From: a virus
Lineage: Duplodnaviria > Heunggongvirae > Uroviricota > Caudoviricetes
DNA length: 7,570 nucleotides
Strand: one strand, 5' to 3'
IMG/VR virus record: IMGVR_UViG_2740892272_000003
Part shown: positions 84 to 1,422 of the stretch, one piece after another
Numbering within the stretch: the first letter of the stretch is position 1
How the letters are laid out: every line of letters begins with the position of its first letter
Program-made: the position numbers and the translations under genes
The notes under the pieces: generated by a model
Database searches by the model: none
What the model was told of the DNA's origin: nothing
Seen by the model: the letters and a program-made list of their open reading frames with translations, nothing else

Positions 84-1240
84 TTAACTGATCGGCATTA
101 CACCACCGGGACGCGGATTCATATCTTCCAGGTCGCGGCAGTCATTGGAAGAGTAAATTCCCCAGTTGATCCCGGTGGCGTAGGCTTCAAAACGGGACTT
201 CATATCCCCGCGCAGTAACGCCCCGGCGTTAAATTTGGCGTAATAAACGCCCTGCTTACTTTTTCGTACCAGTCCGGTGTTGATCCGCTGTTCGATGCGG
301 GTCAGATACGGCACCAGTGAATAGTTGATAAATCCCAGCCCCAGCTCTTCGATATTGTTGAAGGTGGCGCGATCGGTGTTCTGCACCATGTGCAACGGCA
401 CCCGGAACAGACGACAGATTTCTTCCAGCTGAAACTTGCGGGTTTCCAGGAACTGACTGTCCTCGGCGTTCAGCGCCATCGACTTCCAGTCCAGCCCCAT
501 TTCCAGAATCATCGGGCGGTGAGCATTGCCAAGCCCCGTGTGACACTCCTCAAAATCTTTCTTCAGACGCTCGTAAGCATCCGGCGTGAGCTTTTGTTCC
601 GTACGCAACACACCGGATGTCACCGCACCATTACTAAACAACCTGGCACCGTGCTCCTCGGTTGCCGCTGCCAGTGAAATGGCCTCACGCGCATACGCAA
701 TGGGATTCAGCCCGACAAGTCCATCCAGCGTCAGGGTGCGCACATGCCAGATTTCATTCTGGGTCAACACATCCACGGAACCATCCGGAAACGTCACCTG
801 ATAAACCGGCTGCCACTGGCTGTTCAGCTTCGGTTCCACACAGCCCGGATCTATCGGAAGAAGCTCCACCACTTCTCCCAGTGCCTTTACCTTGTAGGCG
901 TAAAAATTCCCCCGTAGACACAGGCAGACAATAACCAGCTCCCAGAATTCCTGCGGTGTCATGTAGCCATTAGGTTTTGCCGAAACCAACTTATGCAGTC
1001 GTTCATCCACCGCCCGTGTTTTCAGGGTACCGCTGATTTTGTAGAGACTGCAGGGCAGCATACCAACAGACTCTGCCAGCACCCTGACGCAAGAATAGAC
1101 CGCCGTCAGGCGCATGGCCCGCTGGCTACTGATCCGCTTTCCGGTATAGGTGTCGTATGACAGCCCGATAGCATCAGCAGTTCTGCTGGCGTGGTCACCG
1201 GCACATCGCTTTTTCGTTGAAATAATCCCGAAAAGAACAC
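84..1240 (-). CDS. Phage portal protein, HK97 family; 5' end apparently frameshifted (possible pseudogene or homopolymer error)
   Basis: The track ORF 84..1331 carries the conserved portal core (RAMRLTAVYSCVRVLAESVGMLP...). Its first ~30 codons overlap the upstream ORF and have no RBS or plausible start. A GGAGG-N6-GTG start at 1240..1238 overlaps the upstream stop (TAGTG) but is in a different frame, open for 44 codons to a TGA at 1108..1106. Coordinates are given from the stop to that GTG. Confidence 0.8.
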
Positions 1241-1422
1241 TATTTACCTCCGCCGACAGACTGCCGTGTACGGTCGAGATATCGCGCCACCAGCCACGAC
1301 CAGAACAGGCACAGCGCCCCGGCAACAACAAAACCCGCCGGGGGATAAATCAGCCAGGCACCATACGCCAGCAAAAGCGCACCCAGCACGCCCACCAGAG
1401 GCGCGAGAATCAGCATGATCAT
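1240..1422 (-). CDS. Small two-helix membrane protein of unknown function (possible moron) between terminase and portal
   Basis: 60-aa ORF with two hydrophobic segments ([22 protein letters not shown] and [16 protein letters not shown]) and a basic C-terminal tail. An RBS (GAGG, 5-nt spacer, ATG) sits immediately after the terminase stop, and its own stop overlaps the GTG proposed as the portal start. Confidence 0.55.

Follow-up and report, generated by a model that had tools for sequence, protein, structure and literature searches.

A frameshifted, IS4-truncated portal gene in a prophage remnant of Shigella sonnei

Introduction

HK97-family portal proteins are known from phiP27, ST64B, temperate phages of the SfI/SfII/SfIV type and E. 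coli prophages such as A36. All of these portals are encoded by single 413-aa ORFs, followed by genes for the prohead protease and the capsid. As to Shigella, the portions of Hawkey et al. (2020, PMC7373316) on which we draw list IS1, IS2, IS4, IS600 and IS911 as the five insertion sequences expanded in all Shigella species, and describe conserved pseudogenes as mostly IS-interrupted, with a subset carrying an additional inactivating mutation.

Here we describe a portal gene at one end of a 7,570-nucleotide stretch of DNA from an IMG/VR virus record (the whole stretch is called the window). The upstream neighbours of the gene, for the large terminase (TerL) and a YmfR-like protein, are those found in phiP27 and ST64B; IS4 takes the place of the downstream side. 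The window is almost certainly a lambdoid/HK97-type prophage remnant of Shigella sonnei, in which the portal gene has become a pseudogene through two independent lesions.

Results

Gene order and insertion sequences in the window

The genes of the remnant lie on the minus strand in the order holin (5346-5131), SAR-type lysozyme (5131-4634), Rz with embedded Rz1 (4649-4173), HNH endonuclease (4130-3780), small terminase TerS (3667-3164), TerL (3167-1434), YmfR-like membrane protein (1422-1240) and portal (from 1240). TerL is intact in the ORF list (577 aa), as is the ymfR-like gene (60 aa), whose homologs are annotated as YmfR or membrane protein. TerS matches TIGR01558, the P27-family small terminase; its start is ambiguous, the identical sequence having been annotated with either a 167-aa GTG start or a 164-aa start. 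An HNH endonuclease gene just upstream of TerS is the usual packaging module of the HK97/P27 type. A search of the whole window against Rfam at gathering thresholds gave no matches, neither to a known frameshift element nor to any other RNA.

Just upstream of the holin gene, an IS110-like element, ISEc20, occupies positions 5357-6940 and encodes a 398-aa transposase (5714-6910); a run of 126 Ns (5357-5482) hides its left end. ISEc20 is missing at the same site in strain Ss046 and the other S. sonnei loci, and its flanks at 5353-5356 and 6937-6940 (CCCC) fall on the same 4 bases of Ss046. Similarity to S. sonnei loci ends at 7476, and the last ~95-110 bases of the window (~7477-7570) match the end of an IS3-family element, with 95% identity to annotated IS3-family transposase regions in E. 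coli. With IS4 at positions 1-100, the window has IS ends on both sides, as expected of a short contig from an IS-rich genome.

Three copies of the remnant (L008, L024 and L026), identical to the window elsewhere, showed dense SNP clusters, with 19-80 differences confined to the lysozyme/Rz/Rz1 region (4206-5111), which look like a recombination patch from the lysis cassette of another lambdoid prophage. In four others (L017, L021, L022 and L023; locus positions ~450-2700), the terminase genes were called in pieces, TerL as 498 aa or as 194+341 aa and TerS as 127+37 aa. Either the terminase genes have decayed further in some strains, or these assemblies contain indel errors; all four have the portal deletion described below in unchanged form.

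A single G is missing from codon 22 of the portal gene

The first-pass annotation of this DNA had reported that the best start codon of portal is out of frame with the conserved core of the gene. All elements of that start are present on the minus strand: a Shine-Dalgarno sequence GGAGG (1251-1247), a 6-nt spacer TAAATA (1246-1241) and a GTG codon (1240-1238), whose first G is also the last base of the TAG stop (1242-1240) that closes the ymfR-like ORF, as TAGTG. The portals of phiP27 and E. coli A36 are annotated from the same GTG, and that of ST64B from one codon upstream. Because the same context, GGAGGTAAATAGTG, starts portal in 92 related phage loci in IMG/VR, the pattern is not due to chance; in 89 of the 90 complete loci among these relatives, a single 413-aa portal ORF begins there. 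These comparisons established that the start of portal is authentic, intact and translationally coupled to ymfR.

The frame opened by this GTG closes at a TGA (1108-1106), leaving an orphaned 5' fragment of 44 codons plus stop in the ORF list (1240-1106). The core of portal, as had been proposed, lies in a different frame, -1 relative to the GTG frame and open from 1331 to 84. The first 21 codons of the GTG frame, MFFSGLFQRKSDVPVTTPAEL, represent the true N-terminus of the portal protein, with an almost exact match to intact homologs; the 23 residues past codon 21 are out-of-frame read-through.

By aligning the gene with its intact relatives, as the first-pass annotation had suggested, we placed the shift at codon 22. 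In the alignment with phiP27, E. coli A36 and ST64B there is a single gap, at CTG-CT, between positions 1178 and 1177 (homologs, GAG CTG GCG GAK GCT; window, GAA CTG -CT GAT GCT). The loss of one G from a GG pair turned an ancestral CTGGCT into CTGCT; the base concerned is the first of codon 22 (Ala). By megablast, positions 1000-1440 had ~1400 relatives among 5426 complete E. coli genomes and ~20 among phage records, and every full-length match listed was one base longer than the query (442 versus 441). Over the whole portal segment, full-length E. coli matches have 1141 bases versus 1140 in the window. An intact IMG/VR relative, L030, has GAACTGGCTGATGCT, which is the sequence of the window plus one G.

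The T5/A5 run at 1214-1210, to which the frameshift had tentatively been assigned, proved not to be its site: the A5 is found unchanged in intact homologs, and similarity in the GTG frame extends 32 nt beyond the run, to codon 21. We infer that the loss of one G from GG was a plain spontaneous deletion, by slipped-strand or other spontaneous error, for which no special mechanism is needed.

The expectation that a one-base change would rejoin the reading frame was borne out. With the G put back, the encoded protein has 385 aa and shares 97% identity with intact E. coli portals (373 of 385 residues in the case of the A36 portal, WP_240745495.1); the restored junction, TTPAEL-ADAIGLSYD, is identical to that of ST64B. 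The restored protein scored 263.6 bits against TIGR01537 (portal_HK97; cutoff 112.05), covering model positions 3-343 of 343, and 359.2 bits against PF04860 (cutoff 39.1), covering positions 2-321 of 321. Codons 22-381 (1177-101 on the minus strand) hold no other lesions. Judged by sequence, the gene is a member of the HK97-type portal family, but a pseudogene: in place of an uninterrupted ORF of ~413 codons from the GTG, there is a stop after 44 codons, a 1-bp deletion and a cut by IS4. Protease and capsid genes 3' of portal are found only in the homologs and in one scaffold, L029.

IS4 truncates the portal gene

Homology to portal ends at position 101, and the left end of IS4, starting with TAATGCCGATCAG, occupies 100-1 on the minus strand; positions 1-110 are 98.2% identical to copies in E. 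coli annotated as 'IS4-like element IS4 family transposase'. This junction (101/100) is a second lesion, which had gone unmentioned in the earlier annotation. IS4 cuts into codon 381 of the 413 in portal, just past its first base; it removes the last 33 codons and adds VMPIS and a stop at 86-84. In two loci (L007 and L008), the full IS4 transposase of 442 aa follows.

Insertion of IS4 generates target-site duplications of about 11-13 bp. A 12-bp sequence at the junction, GTCCCGGTGGTG (112-101), is probably such a duplication, judging from its recurrence in L029: it abuts the left end of IS4 in the window and the right end of IS4 in L029, each junction being on a separate molecule. Probably, a simple insertion of IS4 duplicated GTCCCGGTGGTG, and the right flank was later moved off by an IS-mediated rearrangement.

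On S. sonnei chromosomes, portal is followed by IS4, which in most of them is itself hit by an IS3-family element, and then directly by bamE-recN or raiA-pheA. After IS4 at this locus there are only IS elements and host genes in these chromosomes, with no protease, capsid or tail genes. The remnant keeps its lysis and terminase genes but, with none of these genes following, cannot make heads from this locus. The suggestion that the prophage is decaying therefore stands, on account of the 1-bp deletion (found in all S. sonnei assemblies examined), the IS4 truncation of portal and the absence of downstream head and tail genes there.

The region 3' of IS4 (L004-L010 and L014-L023; locus positions ~9100-13700) occurs in two arrangements among complete chromosomes. 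Most have the bamE-recN arrangement, with IS4 interrupted by the IS3-family element; in L007, L008 and L019, IS4 is intact and raiA-pheL-pheA-tyrA come after it. The two arrangements are consistent with an IS-mediated inversion polymorphism beside the remnant.

The same deletion is present in the IMG/VR scaffold L029, where no IS4 breaks the portal gene at the target site and the sequence leads on into the prohead protease gene. After an N, the scaffold continues with the right end of IS4, GTCCCGGTGGTG, the 3' end of portal and, after these, the genes for protease, capsid and tail. It has two copies of a 386-bp portal/protease segment (99.2% identical); because the two copies differ at 3 positions, the uninterrupted copy is not a mere duplicate. 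Since L029 has the deletion but no IS4 at the same site, the deletion may have come before IS4. As a lead from one scaffold with an N and an abnormal left junction, L029 suggests this order but does not prove it, on account of the N and of the left IS4 junction at the join, where the loop of the IS4 hairpin has the opposite orientation to that in the window (ACAAGTGAGC vs GCTCACTTGT). This part of L029 (2433-2838 and 4197-4582) may be an assembly or scaffolding artefact, or may combine two related prophages of one genome.

Predicted translation products of the frameshifted gene

Ribosomes starting at the coupled GTG (1240) would synthesize 21 correct residues, proceed out of frame and stop at the TGA at 1108-1106. 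The predicted product is a peptide of 44 residues, 21 native and 23 out-of-frame. Re-initiation at an internal ATG (Met43, 1115-1113), which lies in the region of overlap and has no good Shine-Dalgarno sequence, could yield a 343-aa protein lacking residues 1-42 and the C-terminal 33. Such a protein would have no role in assembly without capsid partners at the locus, and we infer that the function of portal has been lost.

A truncated portal protein could still be made, because the PF04860 domain (residues 47-373) would be wholly kept after Met43, and we counted this against the pseudogene reading. The remnant might in that case retain a function, with a portal fragment (the 343-aa product from Met43, or the product of rare -1 slippage at A5) co-expressed with the intact holin, endolysin, Rz, HNH endonuclease, TerS and TerL; it could then interfere with incoming related phages or package other DNA. 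In a related scenario, at which the left piece of L029 hints, a prophage that is almost complete would still carry the frameshifted allele and be rescued by a helper phage. We regard such readings as very improbable.

Gene callers have dealt with the locus differently from our reading of a pseudogene. They annotate either a 343-aa 'portal protein [Shigella sonnei]' from the ATG at 1115, in which the whole PF04860 domain is present, or a 414-aa protein from a TTG at 1328. If these calls were right, the natural start of portal would belong to the core frame, being either ATG 1115 or a non-canonical codon, and the GTG ORF would be unrelated to it. We give this extremely little credence. Before the conserved region, the start-type codons of the core frame are only the TTGs at 1331, 1328 and 1325, all within ymfR, and the next one is ATG 1115; the claim that this frame lacks a good start was correct. 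Upstream of the deletion, what the core frame encodes (…STKKRCAGDHASRT) corresponds to nothing in homologs, whereas the 21 residues from the GTG match the annotated N-termini of intact portals almost exactly. The N-terminal alignments thus ruled out the outcome that the first-pass annotation had set against its own interpretation, a core-frame start with a dissimilar GTG frame.

The deletion is shared by the S. sonnei loci examined

The first-pass annotation had left two explanations side by side, a sequencing error or a real inactivating mutation. To compare the same prophage in related strains, as it had proposed, we made use of the TerL protein, which occurs in exactly the same form in 4305 blocks of a public assembly collection. 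Of the ten loci fetched via TerL, seven lie on complete chromosomes; one of the seven is CP000038.1, identified in a published paper as S. sonnei Ss046. Positions 1-5356 of the window are 100% identical to four of the ten, CP000038.1 among them. Each of the ten carries the deletion, and the intact pattern occurs in none of them. The deletion is also present in ten further loci fetched via the 343-aa product and in six IMG/VR contigs, so that 26 of the 26 loci of S. sonnei or S. sonnei-like type that were fetched have it.

The 343-aa product occurs in 1695 blocks, on at least 1000 contigs, under the name 'portal protein [Shigella sonnei]', and the named members of its cluster are all S. sonnei. 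This product needs both the broken frame and the stop supplied by IS4. In Ss046, the gene is annotated as a TTG-initiated 'putative portal protein' of 414 aa (AAZ89394.1, UniProt Q3YYL8).

Outside S. sonnei, the deletion was absent from the 1394 complete-genome records of E. coli that had a match (5426 genomes searched); among these, no full-length match across the site exceeded 92.8% identity. The extra base is kept in 97 of 97 other related IMG/VR portals. A scan of GTDB species-representative genomes for the deletion allele gave no hits, with apparently no S. sonnei-type genome among the representatives; a longer IMG/VR pattern that required the exact S. sonnei flanks and one extra base also had no matches. 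We also considered L008, L024 and L026, the loci with divergent lysis genes, as older copies by which the deletion might be dated; their portal regions are identical to the window, and they were set aside.

Clearly, the deletion belongs to the germline sequence of the S. sonnei allele; it is present, as is the IS4 lesion, in every S. sonnei assembly examined. A base dropped in one assembly is ruled out because the deletion recurs in separate assemblies and because the product that depends on it is found on at least 1000 contigs. Of the two explanations, the real mutation is upheld and the error falls away. The chance that the gene is intact in the organism is next to nil, even though the N run in the window points to a draft or scaffolded assembly and single-base indels are a common type of error. 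The same deletion, with identical sequence around it, was found in each of 26 loci that come from different assemblies; many of these are complete chromosomes from different projects, one is the Ss046 genome of 2005, and the site is a GG pair rather than a long homopolymer. The uniform presence of the deletion reflects shared ancestry, S. sonnei being a young clone, and not repeated mutation events; the sequencing experiments are independent, though.

Programmed -1 frameshifting or another form of recoding, by which the GTG frame would be joined to the core and a functional portal made, has a practically negligible probability. In its favour, the core frame is offset by -1 from the GTG frame, and tRNA-Lys could slip at low frequency on the A AAA A tetramer (1214-1210) within the overlap; against this, a search of the 44-codon overlap (1240-1106) for a canonical X XXY YYZ heptamer gave none and turned up X XXN tetramers alone (at 1229, 1214 and 1166), the A5 run is common to intact homologs and was not acquired for slippage, and slippage there would swap out 11 conserved residues. 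The two-frame arrangement is not conserved either, all relatives outside the S. sonnei allele being single-frame (one ORF in 89 of 90, as given above), and the gene lacks its last 33 codons and, at the locus, its protease, capsid and tail partners.

Discussion

The portal gene of this remnant is a fixed pseudogene, an ordinary one that is already present in many public S. sonnei genomes. Beyond annotation hygiene and lineage marking, it is of little significance. The appropriate annotation of the locus is a single portal pseudogene, frameshifted and truncated by IS4, in place of the 414-aa TTG-initiated 'putative portal protein' of Ss046 and the 343-aa 'portal protein' of many S. sonnei assemblies. 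The missing G together with the IS4 junction provides a stable S. sonnei-specific typing marker, which occurred in 0 of the 5426 complete E. coli genomes searched. It is also a further case of genome decay in Shigella, with a point lesion and an IS hit in one gene.

In that respect the gene resembles the IS-associated pseudogenes of Shigella in the portions of Hawkey et al. (2020, PMC7373316) cited above, in which an IS insertion, here of IS4, is combined with another inactivating mutation in one gene. Unlike the pseudogenes described there, it is a prophage gene and not a chromosomal metabolic gene; the present locus is not discussed in those portions.

Compared with phiP27, ST64B, the SfI/SfII/SfIV-type phages and E. 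coli prophages such as A36, the locus has the same succession of TerL, a 60-aa YmfR-like gene and portal, the same GGAGGTAAATAGTG start overlapping the upstream stop, and 92-96% DNA identity; the restored protein is 97% identical to the portals of phiP27 and A36 and 91% identical to that of ST64B. It differs from them in the G missing from codon 22, in the replacement of the last 33 codons by IS4 and in having no head genes after portal. The closest match is the Ss046 locus (CP000038.1), which is 100% identical over positions 1-5356, deletion and IS4 junction included; relative to it, the window has an additional ISEc20 upstream of the holin gene and an IS3-family end at ~7477.
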